A stretch of 64,000 nucleotides of DNA, from NCBI GenBank assembly GCA_000934665.2, contig KZ538042.1, positions 62,001 to 126,000 of the forward strand, given 5' to 3'. The DNA is from Catajapyx aquilonaris (lineage: Eukaryota). Within the stretch, counting starts at the first letter, position 1. Each line of letters starts with the position of its first letter. A model generated the notes under the pieces. The model had not been told where the DNA came from. It worked only from the letters and a program-made list of their open reading frames with translations, and searched no databases. Positions 9,987 through 63,245 of this stretch are shown in pieces. Made by a program: the position numbers and the translations under genes.

Positions 9987-10177
9987 NNNNNNNNNNNNNN
10001 NNNNNNNNNNNNNNNNNNNNNNNNNNNNNNNNNNNNNNNNNNNNNNNNNNNNNNNNNNNNNNNNNNNNNNNNNNNNNNNNNNNNNNNNNNNNNNNNNNNN
10101 NNNNNNNNNNNNNNNNNNNNNNNNNNNNNNNNNNNNNNNNNNNNNNNNNNNNNNNNNNNNNNNNNNNNNNNNNNNNN
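9987..10177. other. Assembly gap (N run) between poly-G and poly-T
   Basis: Run of N. Confidence 1.
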
Positions 10178-18827: not shown

Positions 18828-19622
18828 ACCTAATCCCCTTATTCTCTCTGTCCACAAGTTTGTCCATGTTGACCCATCACTTATAGGTTGTAGTCACTTT
18901 CCTCGTTCAGCAATTAGAGGACATAATTATACGGTCAGAAAAAGTGGGACCCACTTCAATAGAGCACCCTGGTGGGCTTTGTACGCGCGGTGACTCATCA
19001 CTAGGGCTGTGCGATATCCGAAATTGCATATCGACTTTCGATACTCAAAAAATATCGAATCGAAAATCGAAAAACCTACATAGAAAATATCAAATCAAAG
19101 TCGATATATCGAAAATCGGAAAACCTACATCGAAGATATCGAAGGCGATATATCGAAAATCGGAAAACCTACATCGAAGATATCGAATCGAAGTCGATAT
19201 ATCGAAAGTCGGAAAACCTACATCAAAGATATCGAATCGAAGTCGATATATCGAAAATCGAAAAACCGACATCGAAAATATCGAATCGAAGGCGATATAT
19301 AGTAAATCGGAAAACCGACATCGAAAATATCGAATCGAAGTCGATATATCGAAAATCGAAAAACCGACATCGAAAGATCGCGATATTCGATGCATCGCAC
19401 ATGCCAAGCGTCGGATATCGCAACTTCGATATTAGGAAAATATCGTGTCGACAGTCGATGTATCGAAATATCGCACAGCCCTACTCATCACCAACGTGCA
19501 TGTAGTACTACTTTCCCCCTAAGCACGGCAGTAGTGTGCATCCTGTGCGCCAACTGGTAAGTACTACTTCCAAATGAGGGGCAAGCAGTGTTGCCAAAAT
19601 TTGGCAACGAGTCCGCTACTAG
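18828..19622 (+). mobile_element. Non-autonomous Helitron family B copy, interrupted by a hAT MITE
   Basis: 3' hairpin gttgccaaa-a-tttggcaac followed by ...ccgctaCTAG (19619-19622); body shared with copies at 21103, 36300, 37606, 39580 and 49330. Confidence 0.75.
19002..19483 (+). mobile_element. hAT-type MITE with internal TCGA/CGATA-rich tandem array
   Basis: TIR tagggctgtgcgatat / atatcgcacagcccta; perfect 8-bp TSD ctcatcac (18994-19001, 19484-19491). Confidence 0.92.
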
Positions 19623-21102
19623 CTTGCGTAAAATAATTGCTTTTACACACACACACGTATGTTTGTGTCCTGGCAGCGTCATTTTGTTGTCAGGTCACAC
19701 CTGCAGTTCGTTGCATTATTGACATGGCCAGCGATGCAACGATTGCAAATGCAGTTCGCTGCAGGTGAGCGTCCACAACCGCGCATCAAAGCAAATTTTG
19801 CGACATTACAGTCACCTCTGCTGGAAGAATCTGAAATATTAATGGCGCCCAACTGATGGAGCATTGTTTTGCTTCGAAAATGTGTTTATCACCGGCAGAA
19901 AAAGTGGCCCGATAGAAAATTGGGGTGCAAGTCACGTATACTGTACCTGCTATAGTCTTTGTGCGTGTCGCATCCAATGTGTGTAAGGTGTGCATGTGCA
20001 CCTGGCGCATGAACACACAGATACCGATCCGCAAAATGAAGGGGGGGCCAAAGAGTGCTTCCCTGAGCCGTAATTGCCTCCAATTTGGACCCACGAAGCA
20101 GGCTTCCCAGACAACTTTTTTTTTTTGGAAATGATTTTTTTTTTTTGGCTTGCACATCTGGCCAGCTTTTTTTTCGGGAGGTCGTGGGCCAAAAAGCGTG
20201 TGTAACCCAGTGGGCACATTAGGCACGTGCCTCAAGTCCAGACCATTTTTTGGTAGGGTTCAATCCGCGCGCGAAGGAATCTGCTCGCGACAGCTGTAAA
20301 CGCCGCTTTGGGGACTACACTACCGTTGAGTTACTCGCTTTTTTTTGACGACGAGGAGCACGACGGATGGGCTTATGTTAATCAGCTCGGAATTTTTTTG
20401 TTAAAGTGGAGTTGTTGATAATCAGGTGGAGTTGTTGATAATGAGGTTCTATCCTGCATTTTGAAAACTCATGGGGTAGAAAAAATCGTACTTATTTTTG
20501 AATGAATTTTGGTGCTTTTTTGTTTCAAGAAATACCGTACGTATTAGTTTTCGAGCTATGATCGATCTATAATATGGTATCGTATTTCCCTCTGACGTCA
20601 CTGAGGCTAAACAGGTGCAGAGGCAGGAACGCACCCGGGCTGCTTTGTTGGCGCTCCTATAACAACCGAGTAAACCAGTCTGCTGACGTCATCCGCAATA
20701 GGCAGGAGTGGAAATGCGCCTATTAGGGCACGCCCCCTTTCCCCCCGGTCAATTTCAGAGTGACTTTTAAACCCGCGATATTTTAAACATTTTTGTGCTG
20801 AAAATTGCCTGTTTACATTATGTATGATTGAACTATTTCCCAGATCCCAGACCAGGGCTGTGCTGGGTTGGCAGTTTAGCACACTTTTCTGCGAATGGCC
20901 GGATTTTCCTTACGACTGGACGTAACTCGACGGTGACGTCATCGATCGGCCAATTAAATCCCGCGGTTAACATTCTTGCGGGTTTGAGGGGAAGCGGTTT
21001 GTGCGGCCGTCCGTCGCCATAGCGATGCGTGAAGCGTGTCGCCAGACTCTCCACTGGGGGTAGTTTCCGCAAACTTGTCTTCTTTTTCGATATGCACGTA
21101 TA

Positions 21103-22164
21103 CTAGTAGCGGACTCGTTGACGAAATTTGGCAACACTGCAGCTCCAACTTGGACGTAGTAAGATATGCAGCTACCAGTTGACGCATAGGCTGTCCCTCT
21201 GCACACTACTGCTAGGGCTGCGCGATATTTCGATACATCGACTGTCGATACGATATTTTCCTAATATCGAAGTTGCGATATCCGACGCTTATCATGAGCG
21301 TTGTATCGAATATCGCGATTTTTCGATATTGTTCGATGTCGGTTTTTCTATTTTCGATATATCGACTTCGATGCGATATTTTTTGAATATGCGATTATTC
21401 GATGTCGGTTTTCGATATGGCTCGATGTCAGTTTTCGATATTTTTCGATGTCGGTTTTTCGATTTTCGATATATCGACTTCGATGCGATATTTTTTGAAT
21501 ATGCGATTTTTCGATGTCGGTTTTCGATATTGTTCGATGTCAGTTTTTCGTATCGACTTCGATGCGATATTTTTTGAATACGCGATTTTTCGATGTCGGT
21601 TTTCGATATTTTTCGATGTCGGTTTTTCGATTTTCGATATAACGACTTCGATGCGATATTTTTTGAATACGCGATTTTTCGATGTCGGTTTTCGATATTG
21701 TTCGATGTCAGTTTTCGATATTGTTCAATGTCGGTTTTTCGTCTTTCGATATATCGACTTCGATGCGATATTTTTTGAATATGCGATTTTTCGATGTCGG
21801 TTTTCGATATTGTTCGATGTCAGTTTTCGATATTGTTCAATGTCGGTTTTTCGTGTTTCGATATATCGACTTCGATGCGATATTTTTTGAATATCGAAAG
21901 TCGATATGCAATTTCGGATATCGCACAGCCCTAACTACTGCCGTGCTTAGGGGAAAAGTAGTAGTACATGCACGTTGGTGTTGAGTCACCGCGCGGACAA
22001 AGCCCACCAGGGTGTTCCTATAACCATTGAAGTGGGTCCCACCCTCTCTGACCGCTATATGGAATTGTTGAAAGTGAAAACTATGGTAACTACTACCTAT
22101 GGCCGATGAGTCAACACGGACATATAAGCAGAAAGAGATAATAAGGAGATTAGTGTATAGAGGA
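21103..22164 (-). mobile_element. Non-autonomous Helitron family B copy (full length), interrupted by a hAT MITE
   Basis: Minus strand begins a|TCctctatacactaat and ends imperfect hairpin + ccgctaCTAG|t, matching canonical Helitron termini and an A/T insertion site. Confidence 0.8.
21213..21933 (-). mobile_element. hAT-type MITE, same family as 19002-19483, with a longer internal array
   Basis: TIR tagggctgcgcgatat / atatcgcacagcccta; perfect 8-bp TSD actactgc (21205-21212, 21934-21941). Confidence 0.92.
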
Positions 22165-46879: not shown

Positions 46880-48085
46880 GCAAATCACACGAGCGGGATT
46901 CGAGTAGACTTTCTCTTCTACCAGGGTTGCCAACTCGTTGAATTTTAATGATCGTTAAAATTATCGCTTTGCGTTTATGAGAGTTCTTCGATGCAATTCC
47001 CATCACAGTTTTAATCGTACAAGTATAGCCATGCCACCCTGTCACTGTACAGTCCGGATGTCACTGGCTAATGCGAACCTGGCTGTACGTTGCGCAACCA
47101 ATAACTGCATTTAAAAATTAAAAACTGTGTGTTTTTTTAAACTGTATGTGGGTGTGTGTAGATTCCTGTAGCGTGCTGGCGTAATTTGGCTGCAGGGCTT
47201 GATGCGTGCTGAGGTCACATGGTATTTAGACTGGGAGGGCCTGAAAATGCATTATTTTGATTCGACTGTCGGGGAGGCCCAGTGGAAAAAAACAACATTG
47301 GTATGCGCAAAAGTACAGGTTTGCGGAGGGGGGGAGGAGACCTGGCTTGTGTGTGTGCATGGCCTGACTACCCTTGCTCGCTTGCTTTACCTGCAACCCA
47401 CGGTTTATTAGGGAGTGGTCGAGTCCGTTCAGACAGAGAGAGCTGGCGTATACATTTTGGGGTTAATTGAATACAAGATGTCTGTGGCATGCCGCTCCAG
47501 AAGGCCACGCCCGTCTAGAAGGAGACTGCTTACACTGCATGGGAGACGCGGTCGAGACGGCATCTCGGGCATCTTTGATGGTTTAGGCGGCCATGGCACT
47601 TCACGGCCAGAACACGCGCGAAGTTGAATATTTTTGCCGTATGAGCTCCTTGCACTTTTCTACTTATTAATTCCGTAAGTACGGCAAAAAAATTTCAAAT
47701 TCGCGCGTGTTCTTCCCGTGAAGTGCCATGGCCGCCAAAACCATCAAAGATGGCGGACCTTTACGGCCTGCCTGTACCCTATTTATACCTCGTTGGGGTT
47801 GCCCCCGTTTCAAAATGGCTGCCAGCATTGGCAACGGCCCCAAACAGAGAAACGCGCGAATCAAATGTTTTCGCCTCTTATATAGTATATGCTCCCTGAC
47901 GCGACCTTGTCGGATAGAGTGAACCTGGAAAACCGGAAGTTGACTATGAAACTTATAGGGCCCACTGAATCGGAATCCGAAAACAGTTTGTCGCTAATCT
48001 CTTGCGGTTAAGGCCCTGATACCTGTCCACAGACAGACGGACATAGCCGTTCTATAATACTTTTTTTGGGGGGATGAGAAAGTCT
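46880..48085 (-). mobile_element. HINE-like element apparently split by ~1 kb of inserted sequence
   Basis: End piece gcaaatcacacgagcgggattcgagtagactttctc at 46880-46916; remainder cgaccttgtcggatagagtgaacctggaaaaccggaagttgac...acagacagacggac...gatgagaaagtct at 47900-48085. Confidence 0.65.
47568..47898. mobile_element. Partial copy of fold-back MITE family C
   Basis: atctttgatggtttaggcggccatggcacttcacgg / ccgtgaagtgccatggccgccaaaaccatcaaagat; right end tagtatatgctccctg as in 57495-57866. Confidence 0.8.
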
Positions 48086-49329
48086 AACATTCATTTAGTG
48101 TGGCTAGATTGTCACGATTGATGATATTTACAGAGGGAGTTACGAGCAAGTGTGCATCGAATTTACGTGGTTGTTACCCACCTGTAAAGCGCAATGGTTG
48201 TCTCCCTTCCTTCAGTAAACATGCATAAGCGCAGTTCCCGTAAGAATTTCTGCTCGAGTAAGGCTCGTGCTGCCGTGCAATGAGACGTGACAGATGCATT
48301 ATGCAAATGACGGAACGTATTTATAATGGGGGCGGAGGAGAAGTGGGGGTGGTTGCGATAATAATATTTATCATGCATTAATTAAGACGGAGGGAAGGGG
48401 ACGTCCGTCGTCAGCCATCCATCAGCGGCAGGGGAGTTGACCATCTGGAAATCCATTTTCAATTCCCACAGCTTCATACTGGGCCAGGGATATTTCCTCC
48501 CCAATTTTCCATATGCACGACGTCACTCTGATGTTGTGGGGGAAGAGGAGCAGTGAGGTGGGAATGAAAAGGGGATGAAATGGAGGAGTCGGAATGAATA
48601 TTAGCGTCATAGGATGCTCCTTCGCCCACCAGTTTCTCTCTCTCTCTCTCTCTCACTCAAAAGCTCTCTCTCTCTCTCTCCCCCCCCCCCTAGTCATGAT
48701 TATGCCAAAAAATAGGGATGGGGAGGTGGGGAGGAATTTCCCAAGTGGCATTTCGGAAGCCTTTGGAGCATTTTGCACATTTCCTGGATTTATTATCTTT
48801 ATTGGCTCGACTAAGAGGGCGCTTTTCCTGCCCTGGCGTGGATGGATTGGATGGAGGGGGGTTAGGGACGAGGGTAGATTTCCTCCCTTCCCCCGCTTTC
48901 CCCCCATCCACGGACGTCACAACATACAGCCCCGGAAAAAGAAAACGGGAGGGAGGAAAATGAAGGCGATTACGACTGCTAATTATTTTTTTTGCCCCTC
49001 CCCTCCCCCCTGGATATTTTTTTTTCTTCTCTAAGCTGAGTAGCCCCCTTTTTGAGCCTTTTTGAGGGAAACTGGGAGCATTCACACAGGCCCGCCTCTT
49101 GCAGGGTGCCTGGCAATGATTCTAAGCGCTCTTCTTCAATTAATTCATTAATTAATTTTAAAAAAATCCTATTAAAAGTGGGAGTGAGCTGTATATAGCA
49201 GGAGTTAGTGTTAGTGTCTTTTCGCTCTGTTCGAGGGAGCTGAGTGCGCATGCGCGGAGAATTCTTCGGGCATGCGCTCCCAACTCCTCTAGAATGGTTT
49301 AATATGCGACTCCATCTAAGTTGTCTCGT

Positions 49330-49576
49330 CACCTACAGGTAGTACAGTTACCATAGCTTTCACTTTCCCCGTTCAACAATGTATTATTAGAGGACAGTAG
49401 TGTACCGCCCTGGTGGACTTTGTCCGCGCAGTGACTCATCACCAACGTGCATGTAGTACTACTTTCCTGAGAGTGGCAGGAGTGTGCATAGGGAGAGCCT
49501 ATGCGCCAACTGGCAGTGGCCGTCCAAGATGGGGGGGGGGGGATGGGCCAGGCAGTGCTTCCAAAATTGGGCAACG
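49330..49576 (+). mobile_element. Helitron family B copy
   Basis: gttaccatagctttcacttt...ccctggtggactttgtccgcgcagtgactcatcaccaacgtgcatgtagtactactttcc. Confidence 0.8.
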
Positions 49577-49579
49577 TAT

Positions 49580-50021
49580 AACTACAGTAGGCACTACAGT
49601 GTCCTTGGCAAGTAGCCCCGCCCCCTACCGGTCGACCAATCAGGATTCGATATCAAAGGAGATGGCCTTTATGTTCTAAAACCTCAAGAATAAAGGCCAT
49701 CTCCTTTGATTGACTAAAACCAAAACCGTCGACGGCGTGTGTGAATGGGCCTTCACACAGGCCGTCGACGGTTTTGGTTTTTGGTCTCGTCGACGCCGCG
49801 GACCAATCAGAACGGGCCCTCACGTAAACAACGCGTCATGGTTACCGTGAGGGCCCGCTCTGATTGGTCCAAAACCAAAACCAAAACCAAAACCGTCGAC
49901 GATGAGTTTGTTTACACTAACGCAGTTGGTAACCCAGCAGGGGACGGGGCGAATTAGTGTATGTAGGCAAGGTCACAAGCCACGCCCAAAACCCTTAGGT
50001 TATCTTGTCCCTACTGTAGTT
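49580..50021. mobile_element. TIR-bounded element containing three consecutive internal hairpins
   Basis: Outer aactacagtagg / cctactgtagtt; inner hairpins 49652-49710, ~49716-49781 and 49800-49870. Confidence 0.7.
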
Positions 50022-50026
50022 GAAGC

Positions 50027-50766
50027 AAGGTGATTTTCCGGGACAGTCCCGAATTTTCGCCCTTTGTCCCGGATTTTTTCAAGGGTCATTCGGGACGCCC
50101 ATTTGTCCCGAATTCGGCCAAGTTGTCCCGGAAAGGAATGAATAAGTATATTCGTATGGTGTCACATTTCGAAACTAACCATGTCCCATGCAAAAAATTC
50201 TTAAGTTAGCAGAATTCCTTTTTTGCTTGCCTGGGACAAATGCTGCCACTGACATGAGTATTCTCCCTCATGAATAGCGTGTGGACCAGTGACAAAAGTC
50301 ACCATAGTGTGGAAACTCTAAAGGCAATGTTAGAGACTAAGGTCAACTATGATGAAACTTGTGTTGAGTTTTTTTTAATGCTTCTGACAAAGAAAGACCA
50401 CAGCTCTGGAAAATACTACAGCAGCTTGGCTTCTGCTTCTCATAAGCTTCTGCTAAAGTAAGTACTATATACTTCACATATAGATGATGATGATGATGGT
50501 AAATAAATTGTGAATGTTCTAAGTGACACCTTGCTTTGTCAGATTGGCTTAGGACATCTGGGCTTGCTTGTAGTACATCTCATTGTCCTAATAAGGAATG
50601 TTCATTTTCTTAAAGTGGAAATAAACTAGATGGCATACTTTCATTGGTCTTTTACCAATCACTCTCTCTGCAACAAACACCCCCCCNCCCCCCCCCCCTC
50701 CCCCCCCCCCGGTTTGCGACGTAATGAGGCGTCCCGAATTTGGGGCCCGGAAATCTGGTCACCTTA
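50027..50766 (+). mobile_element. Internally deleted hAT transposon
   Basis: Ends aaggtga... / ctggtcacctta, multiple sub-terminal gtcccg/cgggac motifs, internal transposase remnant. Confidence 0.8.
50191..50430 (+). pseudogene. Frameshifted hAT transposase C-terminal dimerization-domain fragment
   Basis: Translates QKILKLAEFLFCLPGTNAAT then, after a frameshift, VFSLMNSVWTSDKSHHSVETLKAML, matching the hAT 'P..NA..ERxFS' signature. Confidence 0.85.
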
Positions 50767-52280
50767 ATTTAAAGGACGGTTTCTGATTAGATAATTTGCC
50801 TCACTTTCCTAAGAATGGTCTAACTTCACAGTGACGTACTTGTTTCATCATGTCTCTGACGTCATGTCCGTGACGTCATTGTGAAGTTACACTAAAGTTA
50901 CGATAACTGTAGCGCTAAAGGCAGGCCAAGATCTTTATTATTTTTCCCCCCCACTCTGAGCAACGTTGCAACTGGTTCGAAGCAACAATCACTGTTGGCC
51001 TATTGTACAGTTACAGACGGAAGTGTTTCGTATTTCCCGGAAACCAATCCCGGAATTGTCCTGGAAGTGACCAGTTCCAACAATGGGGCCTCCCATCAAC
51101 AGCATGGGGCGGAGTCAACCGGTGGCAAAACCTTTACCGTGGAAGCTTGCATCTCTCTCTCTTCGTCCTTTTTTTCCCCCTTCCATGTTTCCTTTCTCCT
51201 CCTCTTGCCCAGTGTGTCCCTGGTAATTGATGGGCGCAAAGTTTAGTTCCCTGAGACGGGAAGCGTTTTTGGGGCCCGCCTTTTTTTCCCTCATGGGCCT
51301 GAAGAATGATCGTTCTCTGTATACTGGCCCCCCCAAACTATATACCGGACACGACCATCCCATTAGGCCCGCCCTTGTTTTGGGACTTTGGTTGCTGGAG
51401 GGGACCGGGAGGGAGGGGTGGCAGCAGCGTATATAGGGGGGTGTTTTCATATATTGATTCACGCAGTGTTACAGGACACAACGGGAAGATTTTTTTAGAG
51501 GAAAAATATCGGGGGAAACCCACCCTAGCACGGAGAGAATCTCGCAAAAGTGTTTTACCCAGATTCGTCTATTTCTTGATTGAACTGCTGGGATTTAGGA
51601 AATTTGTATACAAATATCTCAACCATACCTATAAACACGCATTCCACCACCAAAATGTCCATTTCTCGATAAATAATAAAAAGTAGCTTTGAAATTGGCG
51701 CGAAGAATGGGGCGTGGCCAAGGTCGCATTCCGACTCCTGCCCGAAGCTTTGTGGACCAAATGACATCATCTGGCACTCTGTGGACCACCCTGTGATCAG
51801 CACGCACAAAAAAGTGGAGCGTATTCGTATAATGATTTGGTGGCAGGGGTTGAGTCTAGCGGTGTTTGCGGCCGGATCGGGTTCGAAAAGGGGGAGGCAG
51901 ATTGGAGGGGGTATCCTAAGTAAATTTGCGCAATAAATTTTCGTAGGCGGCCAATTGATTGGTCATGCTTCGTGTGGCCACCGCCGTGTGATTGGTAGTC
52001 GGGCCTCGGGCGGGATAAATCTGTCCAGGGCTTAATTGGGGAGGAGGCCTCCCCCACACACATCCTTATGCCGGCCTCTCCCACAAGGAACGGCTCGTTT
52101 TGCCTGGCTGTTATCGAGACTCTCCGGGCCACACCAGGAGAAAATAACTGCTACGACTCTCCAGAAAATCACTTCAACGCAATCTGTAATTCATTATCAA
52201 AACCTATGCCATGGTGTCAAAATATGTTAATTTCTTGTTGTCCGCGCACGACTGATGACTCACCGCGGACAGAGCTGCCC

Positions 52281-52473
52281 TCAGAGATGAGAAGACCGTA
52301 ACTCAATGTCCGCTTGCGGCGAGAAAAAAAGTAGTACCAAAAGCATCCAAGAGGTGGATTTGGGGTGCCGTTCCTTTTCCCCCCTTCCCCCAACGCCACC
52401 TCTTGGATGCTTTTGGTAACACTTGCTTTCTTTTCTCGCCTAAGGGAATGAGTTACGGCCTTCTCATATCTGA
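52281..52473. mobile_element. Fold-back MITE
   Basis: tcagagatgagaagaccgtaactca / tgagttacggccttctcatatctga; inner taccaaaagcatccaagaggtgg / ccacctcttggatgcttttggta. Confidence 0.85.
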
Positions 52474-54088
52474 CGCCAGAGAGTCACATACCATAAGCCA
52501 ATCATGCCAGTTTGAATTACGAGTATGTTTGTTTAAAACGTTAATTTCGAGCATCCTTTCCCCCCAAGCCATTTTGACGATTCAATTGCAATATATAAAA
52601 GAGCTTTTAAAGCTGGCTTGGAACAAAGAAGCGGTTGTGTGAATGGGCACGTAAATATAAAGCGGAGCATGTGGATGTAGCAGCTAAATGAAAAGACAAA
52701 AACCACCTTTTTCCACCCTCTGTAGGAGGCAACATCAAAGCTTATATTGGGTTGCTGTGGGTATAGAGTGTGTCCTTGCGCCCCAGGGGCGGCCCCTGGG
52801 GCTAGATGCTGGCACCGGATTACAAAACAGAACCCCGGTTGCCATTATGCAACTAATCTGCGGATAATTGCAGGGCTCGGGTGACATGGTTTACCCTAGC
52901 TAAAGCGCACCTTTTTCTTTTCCTCAAATTTTTTTTTTCCAGGCCTCATTTTTCCCCTGCTCTTTTTTTTCCTGCTGTTGTTGTTGGCTGCTGCTGTAGC
53001 TGGAGGAGGAGGAAGAGGGGGGTTAGCATTCACGGATGCCACCAGAAACAAAACAGCGCGGAGGTCATTAATTACGACTAGCCTTAATTACAAAACGCCT
53101 GCCTCATTAATTCAAGCCCTGAGTTTTGGGCCTAATCCCTAACACGGTCTTTCTTCCCTTTGTGCCCGCCTCACTGAACAACAAACATACGGGACGCACC
53201 CAGATAAATATTATATCAGCGGGAGAAATGTAATTAGTCACCAGTTGGCCACCCTGCGAATTACTGGCCTTATGCTCTAATTACCCTGACCACTTCAGTG
53301 TTGGAAGAACTTGGGGAGAAAATTGGACACCCGTTCAGTGTTAATATATTGGCAACGCTCGTCGCATGGTCCAGCCATTCAGTTGGCGACACTGTGTCAG
53401 TGAGCCGGGTCCGGAACTGGTCCGGTTTCGTCAGTCTTCTTGGCCGAGGTGTACCGGTAATGGCCGGCTAATTAAGGAGGATTGCAATTATCCTCGGGTT
53501 TAAATGAATGAATAGTACATGAGGCTTTCATTGCCAATTAGTGCTGCTCGTGATGACATGATTCCCCCCCACCCCTTTCCCCCCCTCTTCTCTCCACTTT
53601 ACAAACGCTGTACTTGTCAACTTATCCATTCTTTCACTTATAATAATACCCGCAAGGTCCGGGGGATATAAATAAGTCACGAGTAGGTCTGCACCTTCCC
53701 AATGTAATCCTTGGCTCCCTTTGATTTTCACTTTTTGCATGTTATTTAACCCTCCCCGGCTAATTGCGGGGCTTATGCAACTCTCATTACGCTTGTTGGC
53801 TCCTTGGCGGAAATTACATTCAACTTTCAAGGCCCGCTGTCACATTTGTATGCTTTGCAAAAAGCCCCCCATGTAGGTAATAAGCTCATGCTTCGTACGC
53901 TGTAATTGAGCCTGCGGTCATACAGTGCGTACGCACTAATATGTTCGCATAAGCCTACCAAAATTGCGTCATCTACTATTTACGCCCGATGTACTGTACG
54001 TACACTCAACTGTAAGAGCTGTAGGTTACAATGTAATATCAGCAAGCCGCAGTTTGTATTTCAATTGCTTGGGTACGTTATCCTATGT

Positions 54089-54168
54089 TACTAATTGAAC
54101 ATGTCTTTTTCTTGCAGGTAAGTTTGTCTGCATGACCTACAGTGTACGGAGAGCTGATAGTGGTGAGT
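54089..54168 (+). other. Candidate recursive splice site (CAG|GTAAGT) with 45-nt frame-preserving microexon 54118-54162
   Basis: TACTAAT branch motif 54089-54095, tctttttcttgCAG ending 54117, perfect donor GTAAGT at 54118, second donor GTG|GTGAGT at 54163; phase-1 reading (G)KFVCMTYSVRRADS(G) is open, other two frames stop. Confidence 0.65.
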
Positions 54169-54256
54169 ACTCTATCTCACCAAATGGCTGCAAATTTTCA
54201 AGAAAAGAACTTTTTTGGATTTTTTTCTGTCTGCCCGAAAAGCGCAAGAAACAGCT

Positions 54257-54470
54257 ACAAACGGTTTTCGGATTCGGATTCAGGGGGGTCCTAAATAGGT
54301 TTCAAGGCCAACTTCCGGTTTTCCAGGTTCACTCTATCCGCCAAGGTCGAGTCTACGGCCGGGTGACCTTGGCTTCCTTTGAAACCGGAAATGAGGCTAA
54401 CAACATTCAATGTCGTTGTTGTCCAAATTAGAAGTTCCTTGGAAATGAGAAAAAGTCGACTCGAATCACA
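54257..54470 (+). mobile_element. HINE-like element, partial
   Basis: cggttttcggattcggattcag...caacttccggttttccaggttcactctatccgccaaggtcgagtct...tgagaaaaagtcgactcgaatcac. Confidence 0.8.
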
Positions 54471-54605
54471 TCTGACATAATATAGCAGAAAGTTTGTATG
54501 TTTGTATGTCCGGGCGATCTAACCCACTTTCGGACTACTGAGAGTGCCGAAACTCGTCACACTGATGGCTTATTGATTGTGAAAAAGTCCGAAAACCACA
54601 CTTTT
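54471..54605 (+). mobile_element. Helitron-like 5' fragment (same family as 16200-16495)
   Basis: gaaagtttgtatgtttgtatgtccggg..ctaacccactttcggactactgagagtgccgaaac..aaaagtccgaaaac. Confidence 0.7.
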
Positions 54606-55539
54606 TTTTTTGTAAAAGTCGAAATGACTACAAGTTAGGATTTTACCGGTTGCCTTTGCCATGGAAAGATGCCGTGCGAAGAACGGGCTCCGCTGCTAGT
54701 CTCGTTATCATTTTTGACGAGCAATAATTTCCGAAACACCCTGTGCAACCTCCCAGTGTAATCGTGGTATCTGGCTGATGTCCCCAGCCTTCTCTCTCTC
54801 TCGATTTGACTAGCGTGAGTGACTTGCCAGATATTGAGTGGGCCAAGTGCCCTCCACGGCTAAAGGTAGGCACTTCCCAAAGGCAGTCTGGTGCAGATCC
54901 CCCCCTGCAATTTCTCTCCTCTTTTTTTTATCCATCCTCCTTTGCTCATATGAATGGGACAGGTGTACTGTACAACCCCCCCTCCAATATTCGGGTTCCT
55001 GTCATTTGTGCCAGTGGAAGGGGCAGGGTAGTCGAAATTGCCTTCCCGTGTTTGATAGCCTGTAATAAATTATGAGGCTCGCCATTGGATGCTGAAGGGC
55101 AATTATTTTTTTCCGCCCCCTCCCAGATGATATAATTGCGTTTTTTTTAAAAAAAATCTATATGAAAGTGTACATTGTGATTGGCACGGAAGCGTATCAT
55201 TGGAGCCGGATTCCTGCAAGTGCCAAACTGCCACTCACTTCCGGTCCCGAGTAGCCTACTATCGTTTTGGAGAGGCGGGCTGGGGGGGAAATAATAATTA
55301 TCGCCGAGTCCGAATCCCCCCTTGCCTGCTATTGCCTTTTTGCAAAAAGGGGAGGCCCTCCCTATAATAGCTTACCGCCCGCGGAATTTGCACGGCACCC
55401 CGATTAGGTGCTAAAAAAATGCGCAACAAGTCCTTGCCCCGCACGCCTCACTACGTCAATCATCCTAAGGGTGTACTCGGGACAAGAACATGCCACACTC
55501 ACCCAATCTTCATCCCCTAGGGGGAAACATAGTCGCTAC

Positions 55540-55970
55540 ATGTGATTTTTTTAAACCAGAGCAACCGAGTGCGCACAACAGTTCGCGCAGCTTGCAGGGT
55601 TGGCATTAACAAAATGATGGTTGGTGGGGCAGATGGTAACGTCTCGGCTAGCTGAGTGAAAGGTCCCATGTTCGATCCCTACCTGGGAGTTCCCTTTCAC
55701 CTGCGTCGGGAGGGTCTCTGACCTTCTCCCTACTACATTTTCGACGTTTTGGCCCAAGGAATACGCTGGCTGCCGTTGACCGTTACTAGTAGTAAGAAAC
55801 ACCTTGTGTAGAGGGTGTACTGCTTTGTACTTATTTCCAACGATGCGTTTTGGGGGAGTGGGCAAATGGCCGACGTTTGCGACGTTGCCAAGGCTCTGGA
55901 ACGAACCGCTCCTGGAGAGTAAGAACAATGGAGCTGCGCGAATGTGGGTGCGCACTAGGTTCGTTTATAG
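55540..55970 (+). mobile_element. MITE family A copy interrupted by a SINE (further degenerate A copy at 56020-56170)
   Basis: gcaaccgagtgcgcacaacagttcgcgca start; cttatttccaacg...atggccgacgtttgcgacgttgccaagg resumes after ~55810. Confidence 0.8.
55617..55805 (+). mobile_element. tRNA-derived SINE (Pol III A and B boxes)
   Basis: A-box-like tggggcagatgg 55625-55636, B-box gttcgatccc 55670-55679 at tRNA spacing, followed by non-tRNA body; absent from other family A copies. Confidence 0.7.
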
Positions 55971-56542
55971 TCGCTGCTACTTATTTCAAAACATAACAGT
56001 TTTGGCCCCTGACAGTTATATATGAATTTTTATAAGAGCAACGAATGCGCACCGACACTCGCGCAGCTCCATTGAGCTGACAACAACGTTGCCAGAGTTA
56101 CTGTCCCACTTGTAGTGCGTGCTTGCACCATCCGGTGTGAGTGCAGTGCGCGGGGGGGTATTATGCAGTTTGCACAAGTTGATCCAAGCACAGTGTGCCT
56201 CCCTCCCTCCCTCCCCATCCAAAAATGGTGCGGTAATATTTACTGCGGGCCTTTGATATAATTGATTTGTAAGAGCGGATGAACTGTGTGTGCTGGCTTC
56301 CGCATTGTCTGCTGCCAGCAACACAGCCTGGGATTGCCAGTGTTTTCCATCGGGGGCAGGGCAGGCCAGGGTGGGGGTTCAAATTGCTTCATTTGATAAC
56401 CCTGCTGGTGCCTCTAAAAACACACTGTAATGCCCGTAACTCCATTTCTGACTCGCGTCATTCTGTACAGTGCTGCATAAAGCCCAAAGAAAGAATATTG
56501 CTAGTGTAACAATAATTAACTTCTTTTTAAAAACCGTTACTT

Positions 56543-56843
56543 AGGCTCGAGTCAGAGAGTCGCCAACTTCTGACTTCATGTCGTCTCTGGTTGGCTGGAG
56601 TCATTTTGGACAGTTTATGTGTCCTATGGAGGCCGCCATCTTGCGTTTCTAAGGTGGCCGGCTCTGACGTCACGGTCGACTCCGATTGGACAAGCCAATC
56701 GGAGTCGACCGTGACGTCAGAGCCAACCACTATTTCCAGAGAAACGAAAGATGTCACCCTCCATAGGACCCGTAAACTGTCCAAAATGACTTCAGCCAAC
56801 CAGAGACTCTGAAGTCAGAAGTTGGCGAATCTGACTCCAGCCT
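56543..56843. mobile_element. Palindromic MITE family G
   Basis: Central palindrome ggctctgacgtcacggtcgactccgattgg-acaag-ccaatcggagtcgaccgtgacgtcagagcc; outer tcgccaacttctgacttca / tgaagtcagaagttggcga. Confidence 0.9.
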
Positions 56844-57494
56844 CTCTAGACTGGATGCGTAGATATCCAGATAGTGCAGGGCAGATTCATGAAAAGTTTT
56901 GTAAAAAAAAAGTTCCTAATTTCCTCTTGTAAAAAGGGAGGAATACGAGACAGTGGAAGGAGGGAGGGGGAAAGAATAAGTGAAGCTAATCTTGTTGGGT
57001 GTCATCTCGTATCTGAAGGAGTCCAAAGAATTTCCTTCTTTTTTTGTGTATGTGTGCAGACGGTACCTTTACCTTCCCCCTCTTCCAAGGCTCCGATTGT
57101 CAGTGGGAAGGAAAAACACGGATGACATTTGAGCGGAAGCGGAGAAGAAGAAGAAAAAGAAAAAGAGTAGAATGGGTACAAATCGGGGGAGGAGGGAGGG
57201 GGGGGGGGAATATATGGAGGCGTCTTCTAAGGAGACTTTCTCCCCCCCCCCCTCCCCTCACCAGGCTCTAATCTCCTAATGGAAATTGAGTTTTGGAAAA
57301 TGAGTCTGCAGCCACTCTCTTCCTTCCAACAAACCCATTGTTGAGAGCCCTTCTTGCAGACTCGTTACAGGGTGGACCAGCATGCCATAACTGTACTGAC
57401 GTCACGAGTCTGCAATTGTTTTTTTTTTCTCTTGTCGGAATAATTTCATTTTCACTTTACATATTCTTCCGAGGTTATTCCGTAGCTGTAATAC

Positions 57495-57866
57495 CAGGGA
57501 GCATAATTATTATACTATACATAAGAGGCGCAAACTTCTGTCGGCGCCTTTGATGTCCGCGTCTCTCTGTTTGTAGCCGTTGCCAAGGCTGGCGGCCACT
57601 TTGAAATATGGGCAACGCCAACGAGGTATATAGGGTACAGGCAAAAATAGGGTCCGCCATCTTTGATGGTTTTGGCGGCCATGGCAACTACACGGCAAGA
57701 ACAAGCGCGAATCAAAGATGGCGGACCCTATTTTTTCCTGTACCCTATTTATTATACCTCGTTGGCGTTACCCACACTTCAAAGTGGCCGCCAGCCTTGG
57801 CAACGCCCCAAACAGAGAGACGCGGAAATCGAATGTTTGTGCCTCTTACGTAGTATATGCTCCCTG
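57495..57866. mobile_element. Fold-back MITE family C, complete, 7-bp TSD (P-element-like)
   Basis: TIR cagggagcata / tatgctccctg; TSD gtaatac at 57488-57494 and 57867-57873; long inverted arms. Confidence 0.88.
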
Positions 57867-58017
57867 GTAATACCGACAACGAATGTACGGAAAATGAAAG
57901 AACGATCTTGACGTCATCGTTTCTTCCATTGTTGCTTTTTTGTGGACACTGTTTACTCGTATTGTTCTGCGAGGGTATTTCCATGGAAACCTCGATGACC
58001 TCATTTTCCGCACATTA

Positions 58018-58241
58018 TAGGCGAATTTTTAAATGAGCGCAACCGAGTGCGCAACACAGTTCGCGTAATTGTCTCCAACACGACATTTGAATGGGTAACA
58101 ATATGACCGACTTTTGCGATGTTGCCAAGGCTCTCGAAGGAACCTTAAGAGCCCCCTGAGGAGTAATTGTGGCAACGTTGTCGGAACAATGGACTTGCGC
58201 GAGTGGGTGCGCATGCGGTTGCGCTCGTAGGAAATTCATCT
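58018..58241 (+). mobile_element. MITE family A copy
   Basis: gaatttttaaatgagcgcaaccgagtgcgca ... tgcgcatgcggttgcgctcgtaggaaattcatc. Confidence 0.9.
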
Positions 58242-58830
58242 GCTGGTTGCTGGAGGTGAACAATAGGCAACTTCTTGGCTGCGCACCGCCCTGTTAAATT
58301 TTTTAGAGGTATGGTTTGGGGAAAGGGCCCATTTTTCACACTCGGGCCATTCTTTTTTTTTTTCCTTCACCGCGAGCGTTTGCTACACACACGAGTGGCC
58401 TGGGCGACATAACTGCAGCTGTTTATTTTCTCTGTTTATTTTCTGCCGCTGATTTACCGGGGGGTGTCGACGTGGGGGTCAGGCTCATTTCAAGGGGGAT
58501 GGAGGGAATACAAAGAGAGGGGAGGGGAGGAGAGGGGGGGTATGAAAAATGTGCTGCAGACGCAATTCCAAATTTCCACAACCCTCGTATAGGGCGACAT
58601 GCACCCGCGAGGAAAATAAATGTCATTTTTTATTCCCCNCCTTTCCCCCCCCCCCCCCCCCTCCACATCTCCGCCTGCGCCTTTTCCTGCCTCGGTTTAC
58701 TTAACTCCTCATATTGTTAGGAAAGCCCATCTCGCATGCTACAAGTTAGCATCCCTGCTGCCCACCTGACATATCCACAATGAGGAGAAAGTGTACGCCA
58801 CAGAGTTCAGGTGATGACTCACCCCGGACA

Positions 58831-59101
58831 AGCGACCCTCCGAGAGTGCACATCTGGCACCTCCCCACACTTCCACGCATGCTCCGAGGGAATGAGGGTA
58901 CCAAGTGAAGAGAACATTATCTCTTTAAAACATTCTACTGGCAAAGGAAATATCACTCTGGTACTTATATGTAAATTGATATTCAGACATGTAGTAGACT
59001 ACTTATGTATGTAATTGGAAAAACGTCACTTACACCATCTGGCAACCTTGTGGACATGTGAAAAGTGGGAGGTGCTCGAAGTGCATTCTCGGAGGGCCGC
59101 T
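58831..59101. mobile_element. MITE with ~45-bp imperfect TIRs
   Basis: agcgaccctccgagagtgcac..gcacctccc / gggaggtgc..gtgcattctcggagggccgct. Confidence 0.75.
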
Positions 59102-61417: not shown

Positions 61418-61446
61418 NNNNNNNNNNNNNNNNNNNNNNNNNNNNN
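61418..61446. other. Assembly gap (N run) between poly-G and poly-C
   Basis: Run of N. Confidence 1.
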
Positions 61447-62782: not shown

Positions 62783-63245
62783 AAGGCGCTGTTTACACCC
62801 TGACGATATGAGCCTGGGTCGCACGACCAGGTGCTTTGCGACCGACAAAAATGGGAACGACTGAAGGTATGCGACCGCAAAACTGTGACCAAAATCATCT
62901 CCAACAGAAACAGTCGCATGCCTCGACCGGACCTAGGAGAGCCCATTTTTATGGGTCGCACGACCATCACACTCTTTTCGACCGACAAAAATGGGACCGG
63001 ACCGGATCTGTAGGGGAGCATATTTTTTGTCGGTCGCAAAGCGTCTGATGGTCGTGCGACCGACAAAAATGGGACCGGACCGGATCTACAGGGGAGCAAA
63101 TTTCTGTCGGTCGCAAAGCGTCTGGTGGTCGTGCGACCGACAAAAATGGGACCGGACCGGACCTATAGGGGAGCGGATTTTTGTCGGTCGCAAAGCGTCT
63201 GGTCGTGCGACTGATGCTGAAATCGCGAAGGCGTAAACAGGCCTT
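62783..63245. mobile_element. TIR element (PIF/Harbinger-like ends) with internal ~78-bp tandem, self-complementary repeats
   Basis: aaggcgctgtttacac / gcgtaaacaggcctt; 3 units of cgaccgacaaaaatgggaccggaccggatct...ttttgtcggtcgcaaagcgtctg at 62980-63212. Confidence 0.8.

Follow-up and report, generated by a model that had tools for sequence, protein, structure and literature searches.

A candidate recursive splice site with a short, probably cryptic exon in a repeat-rich 64-kb DNA window

The candidate site

The whole stretch of DNA analyzed here, referred to as the window, is 64 kb long. A compact group of splice-like motifs lies near its 3' end on the + strand (Table 1). A branch-point-like heptamer is followed by an uninterrupted polypyrimidine tract, a CAG acceptor and, fused directly to the acceptor, the donor hexamer GTAAGT; a second donor, GTGAGT, begins 45 nt further on. 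An earlier reading of the same DNA, made without database searches, had listed this set of motifs, and every one of them was found on the + strand exactly where the sequence-only reading had placed it. The CAG/GTAAGT at 54115-54123 is the sole CAGGTRAGT on either strand of the window. Its donor half, the putative ratchet-point donor, matches the donor consensus at +1 to +6. The downstream donor carries G at +3, and the exon bases just before it, GTG, fit the consensus poorly.

The same reading held that the motifs lie in unique sequence, and this is borne out by single-copy contigs that span the site. Contigs from three DNA runs of one sample start at 52384, 52446 and 52450, all end at 54282, and cover the region at depths of 17-27 with 0-1 differing letters. 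Of the five runs listed for this DNA, four are DNA runs of one sample and none is recorded as RNA; the fifth, X5, matched repeats only and gave no cover at the site, a result that has no bearing on expression. A search for relatives with an exact 24-mer had 0 matches in metagenome contigs. Single-copy sequence ends shortly after the second donor: a highly repeated element begins 115 nt past it, the single-copy contigs resume at 54673, and over the intervening 54283-54672 the contigs sum to a depth about 70 times higher, a figure that is not a copy number. A segment of this interval is an inverted copy of DNA found more than 6 kb upstream (Table 1).

Table 1. Features of the candidate site and of the window around it
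Feature	Position	Strand	Remarks
Branch-point-like heptamer TACTAAT	54089-54095	+	presumed branch A = 54094, 24 nt 5' of the cut; direct read
Polypyrimidine tract TCTTTTTCTT	54104-54113	+	10/10 Y; TT (54112-54113) at -6/-5
CAG acceptor	54115-54117	+	preceded by G; putative cut 54117/54118
GTAAGT, putative ratchet-point donor	54118-54123	+	would be regenerated on joining an upstream exon at 54118
Putative RS-exon, 45 nt	54118-54162	+	probably cryptic and skipped
GTGAGT, downstream donor	54163-54168	+	would define the RS-exon
Stop-to-stop open stretch, 110 aa	54099-54428	+	contains the open phase of the 45 nt; continues into the repeat
Highly repeated element	starts ~54283		
Inverted copy within the repeated interval	54295-54353		90% identity to 47898-47956
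Bins of high summed depth	47336-48002, 49337-50003, 55340-56006, 57341-58007		hundreds to ~2000x single-copy; not a copy number
Inverted-arm elements, MITE-like	47565-47757, 52322-52431, 56583-56807, 57578-57805, 57627-57751		arms 41-71 nt, 86-95% complementary
Tandem unit of 77 nt, x3	62946-63177		73-100% identity; internal inverted repeats
Long ORFs with a short peptide period	~18887-21890	both	no Pfam above cut-off
N runs	9987-10177, 61418-61446		191 and 29 bases; 11 single N in addition

A different origin of the core motif was also considered. The reverse complement of CAGGTAAGT is the 5' end motif of U1, and the site could in principle be a U1 snRNA gene, or a relic of one, on the - strand. 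The only point in its favor is the 9-nt complementarity, which is inherent in any consensus donor. No Rfam family reached its gathering score in the window and no U1 match was obtained at E <=1 over 47000-59000. The U1 explanation was therefore rejected, and its probability is very small.

The 64-kb setting

The window was scanned for genes by several routes. The Pfam scan comprised 472 ORFs of at least 60 aa in all, a size limit at which short exons may be missed. None of the 241 stop-to-stop ORFs of at least 80 aa scored above the cut-off (below it were PatG_C with 16.4 bits and DUF5759 with 19.4 bits), and there were 0 hits among the 231 ORFs between 60 and 79 aa long. A Homeobox domain was found by Pfam in none of the 472 ORFs, and the motifs YPWM, WFQNRR, KIWF and QNRRMK occur in none of the six frames across the 64 kb. 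At gathering score the whole window has no Rfam family, and no Hox-cluster microRNA was detected in it; the tRNA scan of the window returned 0. A home-made period-3 scan, uncalibrated on known exons, had a mean of 0.94 and peaked at 3.7, with no region standing out. A flanking exon was not recognized anywhere in the 64 kb. The longest ORFs of the window have the appearance of low-complexity or tandem-repeat read-through.

As no coding content was recognized, the window appears to be a long non-coding part of a eukaryotic genome rich in repeats. Its sequence is compatible with a large intron, but it may also lie between genes. The suggestion that the host intron might belong to a Hox gene drew nothing from this repeat-dense window, in which the homeobox, the YPWM and WFQNRR motifs, any Pfam domain above cut-off and any microRNA at gathering score were all looked for and not found; Hox exons may still lie beyond the 64 kb. 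The CpG observed/expected ratio of the window is 0.83, which speaks against strong CpG depletion of the vertebrate type.

The two strands differ in composition. T exceeds A in 11 of the 16 bins of the + strand and G exceeds C in 12 of them, and the same holds for the window overall. Runs of at least six T, overlapping matches included, number 305 on the + strand and 188 on the - strand; TACTAAY occurs 13 and 4 times, respectively, and AATAAA 28 and 41 times. These asymmetries lean weakly to + strand transcription but may also stem from oriented repeats. Acceptor-like tracts run the opposite way, being commoner on the - strand (48) than on the + strand (33).

Rarity of the composite signal

How often the motifs would meet by chance was estimated from shuffles and from background rates measured in the window itself, at 127,640 positions on both strands. 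The simplest version of the signal is not unusual. The bare core, CAGGTRAGT, has one match where 0.80 is expected, and at least one match occurred in 53 of 100 shuffles, both strands counted. Adding seven pyrimidines with at most one mismatch leaves it unremarkable (one match, 0.29 expected; 27 of 100 shuffles). More complete versions are scarcer. The exact pattern Y10-N-CAGGTRAGT occurs once in the window and in 0 of 100 shuffles, and the core followed by GTRAGT after 25-55 nt has a single match, with 1 of 100 shuffles also producing it. There are 48 GTRAGT in the window (22 + and 26 -), among which only the 54118/54163 pair is spaced 5-100 nt apart.

A tract with at least nine pyrimidines in ten precedes 4.1% of the 127,640 positions, GTRAGT begins 25-100 nt downstream at 2.7%, and CTRAY lies 19-45 nt upstream at 8.4%. 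Multiplied with the 0.80 expected cores, these rates give expectations per 64 kb of 0.033 for the core with its tract, 0.00095 when the second donor is added and 0.00004 when the branch motif is added as well; the smallest of these are optimistic, because the feature definitions were set after the site was seen. The composite signal is rarer than chance within the background of the window.

An alternative is a chance juxtaposition. The DNA would then be intergenic, antisense, or intronic and unused, and nothing would be spliced at the site. The raw material is plentiful, with 81 strong acceptor-like tracts in the window beside the 48 GTRAGT, and the bare core is expected almost once per window. 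The expectation of 0.033 for core and tract, small as it is for 64 kb, implies that a gigabase genome would carry hundreds of chance matches. The lack of a recognized exon within the 64 kb is also in keeping with chance, as is the rarity of efficient intronic recursive sites outside flies. What speaks against it is that the full composite is expected far below once per window, both in the shuffles and in the product of the rates, and that three of its features (the TT at -5/-6, the branch distance and a donor within 100 nt) had been defined in the literature beforehand. Taking both sides together, chance is nearly as likely as the reading of the site as a recursive splice site.

Resemblance to fly ratchet points

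The closest known system is that of the Drosophila intronic ratchet points with their cryptic RS-exons (Burnette 2005; Duff 2015; Joseph 2018, 2021; Pai 2018). In the preprint of Duff et al. (Duff 2015), 197 ratchet points are described in 130 introns of 11-133 kb; the recursive branch points map to -36 to -21, and TT is present at -5/-6 in 196 of the 197, compared to 43.8% among all introns. Recursive introns make up only 6% of the fly introns that exceed the shortest recursive one (Duff 2015); by another fly figure, 63% of introns longer than 40 kb are recursive. According to Joseph et al. (2021), a cryptic RS-exon defined by its downstream donor is required for recursive splicing, the known fly RS-exons are 51, 51, 53 and 56 nt long, and cryptic RS-exons of the fly tend to be out of frame. 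According to Blazquez et al. (2018), a second donor lies less than 100 nt downstream at most fly sites. In both, the rebuilt donor competes with that of the exon itself, and the outcome sets skipping or inclusion.

The candidate resembles the fly sites in each anatomical respect. Its core is AG/GTAAGT, preceded by a U-rich tract with TT at -5/-6; the A of TACTAAT, a motif rather than a mapped branch point, stands at -24, inside the fly range; a second donor follows 45 nt downstream, well within 100 nt; the putative RS-exon, at 45 nt, is near the 51-56 nt of the known ones; and the setting is long and non-coding. It differs from the fly cryptic RS-exons, which are mostly out of frame, in that its 45 nt preserve the frame; it is a putative site, and its host may not be an insect. 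The proposal that a recursive splice site lies here is partly supported in its motif anatomy. The rarity of the composite adds to it, as do three published features that the sequence-only reading had not invoked, namely the TT, the presumed branch distance and the nearby donor; whatever went beyond the motif found no support.

What such a motif is worth depends on the genome that carries it. Ratchet points are dense in Drosophila, and a motif as good as this one, if found there, would very probably be real. Most matches would be idle in a genome of the vertebrate kind, with its few efficient intronic sites. Blazquez et al. (2018) give about 10 efficient intronic ratchet points in human against the 197 in fly. 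A lungfish preprint reports recursive splicing at conserved sites, to an extent like that in human, rather than as a ubiquitous process. Among arthropods other than flies, a locust gene has a predicted site for which U2AF65 pull-down gives support.

Reading frame of the 45-nt stretch

The 45 nt between the two cuts equal 3 x 15. Phase 1 alone is open and reads KFVCMTYSVRRADS; the other two frames stop. The open phase, as claimed before, is correct, but the openness extends beyond the 45 nt, being part of the 110-aa stop-to-stop stretch listed in Table 1, which runs on through the presumptive intron. The G residues that had been bracketed at either end of the peptide are dropped here: they come from intron bases in a genomic read-through, and the actual flanking residues would depend on the neighboring exons. 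Stretches of 14 codons are stop-free at 57% of window positions, and to find a stretch both open and frame-preserving is almost uninformative, because 0.57 x 1/3 (~0.19) is expected by chance. A 40-aa read-through query containing the peptide, searched in a 5.8-billion-cluster collection, returned one candidate among proteins of 71-2000 aa, and none scored at E <=10, which is weak negative evidence.

These results bear on a second alternative, that the 45 nt are an ordinary included exon which merely starts donor-like. Such an exon might code for protein, be untranslated or belong to a lncRNA, and be constitutive or alternative, and the Ubx-style microexon would be one version of it. It has an acceptor and a donor that are both strong, a length that is a multiple of three and an open phase 1. 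Published work adds that a donor is rebuilt at the upstream junction of 3.6% of annotated human exons, which nevertheless stay included, that exons begin with GT more often than with any other dinucleotide, and that Ubx has two RS-exons, m1 and m2, each 51 nt long and frame-preserving. Frame preservation itself leans slightly to an included exon, because cryptic RS-exons in the fly tend to break the frame. On the other side, the open phase and the multiple of three are those expected by chance, the frame stays open beyond the 45 nt and into the repeat, the weak evidence of the protein search points the same way, and a full GTAAGT ratchet donor favors skipping, according to the published model of donor competition. 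An included exon is on balance unlikely.

The sequence-only reading had gone further and proposed that the site can toggle a 15-aa insert. This proposal is left without support, since an open phase in a multiple of three is expected by chance and the peptide has no protein match in the search described above. It is very improbable that a non-dipteran animal with a large genome has here, in a developmental gene, a regulated recursive microexon that preserves the frame and is kept or re-spliced away as GTAAGT and GTGAGT compete. If it were true, Ubx-type toggling by re-splicing would not be a peculiarity of flies. The donors point in another direction. GTAAGT is at least as good a donor as GTGAGT, and under the donor-competition model the 45 nt should therefore be skipped most of the time. 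The putative RS-exon is probably cryptic and skipped and not a toggled protein insert.

A proposed model for splicing at the candidate site

The reading we prefer, tentatively and at less than even confidence, is that 54089-54168 holds a ratchet point for recursive splicing together with a short cryptic exon, on the + strand and inside a long intron. A possible sequence of events can be drawn from the anatomy of the site together with the fly and vertebrate literature, which are the sources of all its steps. U2AF and U2 would recognize the TACTAAT, the U-rich tract and the CAG, and U1 would bind the GTGAGT at 54163, so that the 45 nt are defined as an exon. The upstream exon would then be joined at 54118, and the 5' portion of the intron would be lost. 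The new junction would recreate a full donor, made of the exon end and GTAAGT, in competition with the GTGAGT 45 nt on. GTAAGT, being a consensus donor, would be mostly chosen; the 45 nt and the remaining intron would then leave together, and the mRNA would bear no trace of the event.

Relation to known recursive systems

The Ubx microexons mI and mII are RS-exons that are expressed (Hatton 1998, cited in Duff 2015 and Joseph 2021). The earlier statements about them agree with the literature: they are 51 nt long, have GTAAGA straight after the acceptor, preserve the frame and are re-spliced. The candidate is like them in being a short frame-preserving exon with a donor consensus right after the acceptor. 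It is unlike them in having 45 nt rather than 51 and GTAAGT rather than GTAAGA, and in lying in a window with no Hox signature.

A likeness to vertebrate RS-exons (Sibley 2015; Blazquez 2018) lies in exon definition and in the competition of the rebuilt donor with the exon's own donor. Vertebrate intronic sites are few, and most vertebrate RS-exons are annotated exons that are included under the protection of the exon-junction complex.

Recursive splicing at dedicated ratchet points has good documentation in Drosophila alone, with sparse records from vertebrates. The site bears on the largely open question of how far invertebrates with large genomes depend on it for their long introns. A site so near the fly consensus makes a clean target for RNA work; a single motif alone changes little. 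If real, the candidate would add one example to the already known class of ratchet points.

Repeats and other features of the window

The last 20 kb of the window are strewn with repeats and short inverted-repeat elements, and in several bins the summed contig depth rises far above that of single-copy DNA (Table 1). At a loose contig end at 55693 stands GGTTCGATCCC, which resembles the B-box of tRNA genes. This B-box-like sequence suggests that the repeat family is a tRNA-derived SINE. Five further elements with inverted arms are MITE-like.

When the Rfam threshold was relaxed to E <=1 over 47000-59000, 74 matches were obtained, all below gathering score and none at the candidate site. Nearly all belong to microRNA-precursor families, that is, to hairpins. 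Matches of this kind, all far below gathering score, occur in and around several of the inverted-arm elements, at 52.3, 56.65 and 57.6-57.7 kb.

Gaps in the sequence, in the form of two N runs and scattered single N (Table 1), mark the window as part of a gapped scaffold. Near its 3' end, a 77-nt unit is repeated in tandem and carries inverted repeats of its own. Far upstream, the long ORFs of the ~18887-21890 region show a short peptide period on both strands (e.g. KISNRKSKNLHRKYQIKVDISKIGKPTSKIS), which looks like an array of tandemly repeated DNA and not like a gene.
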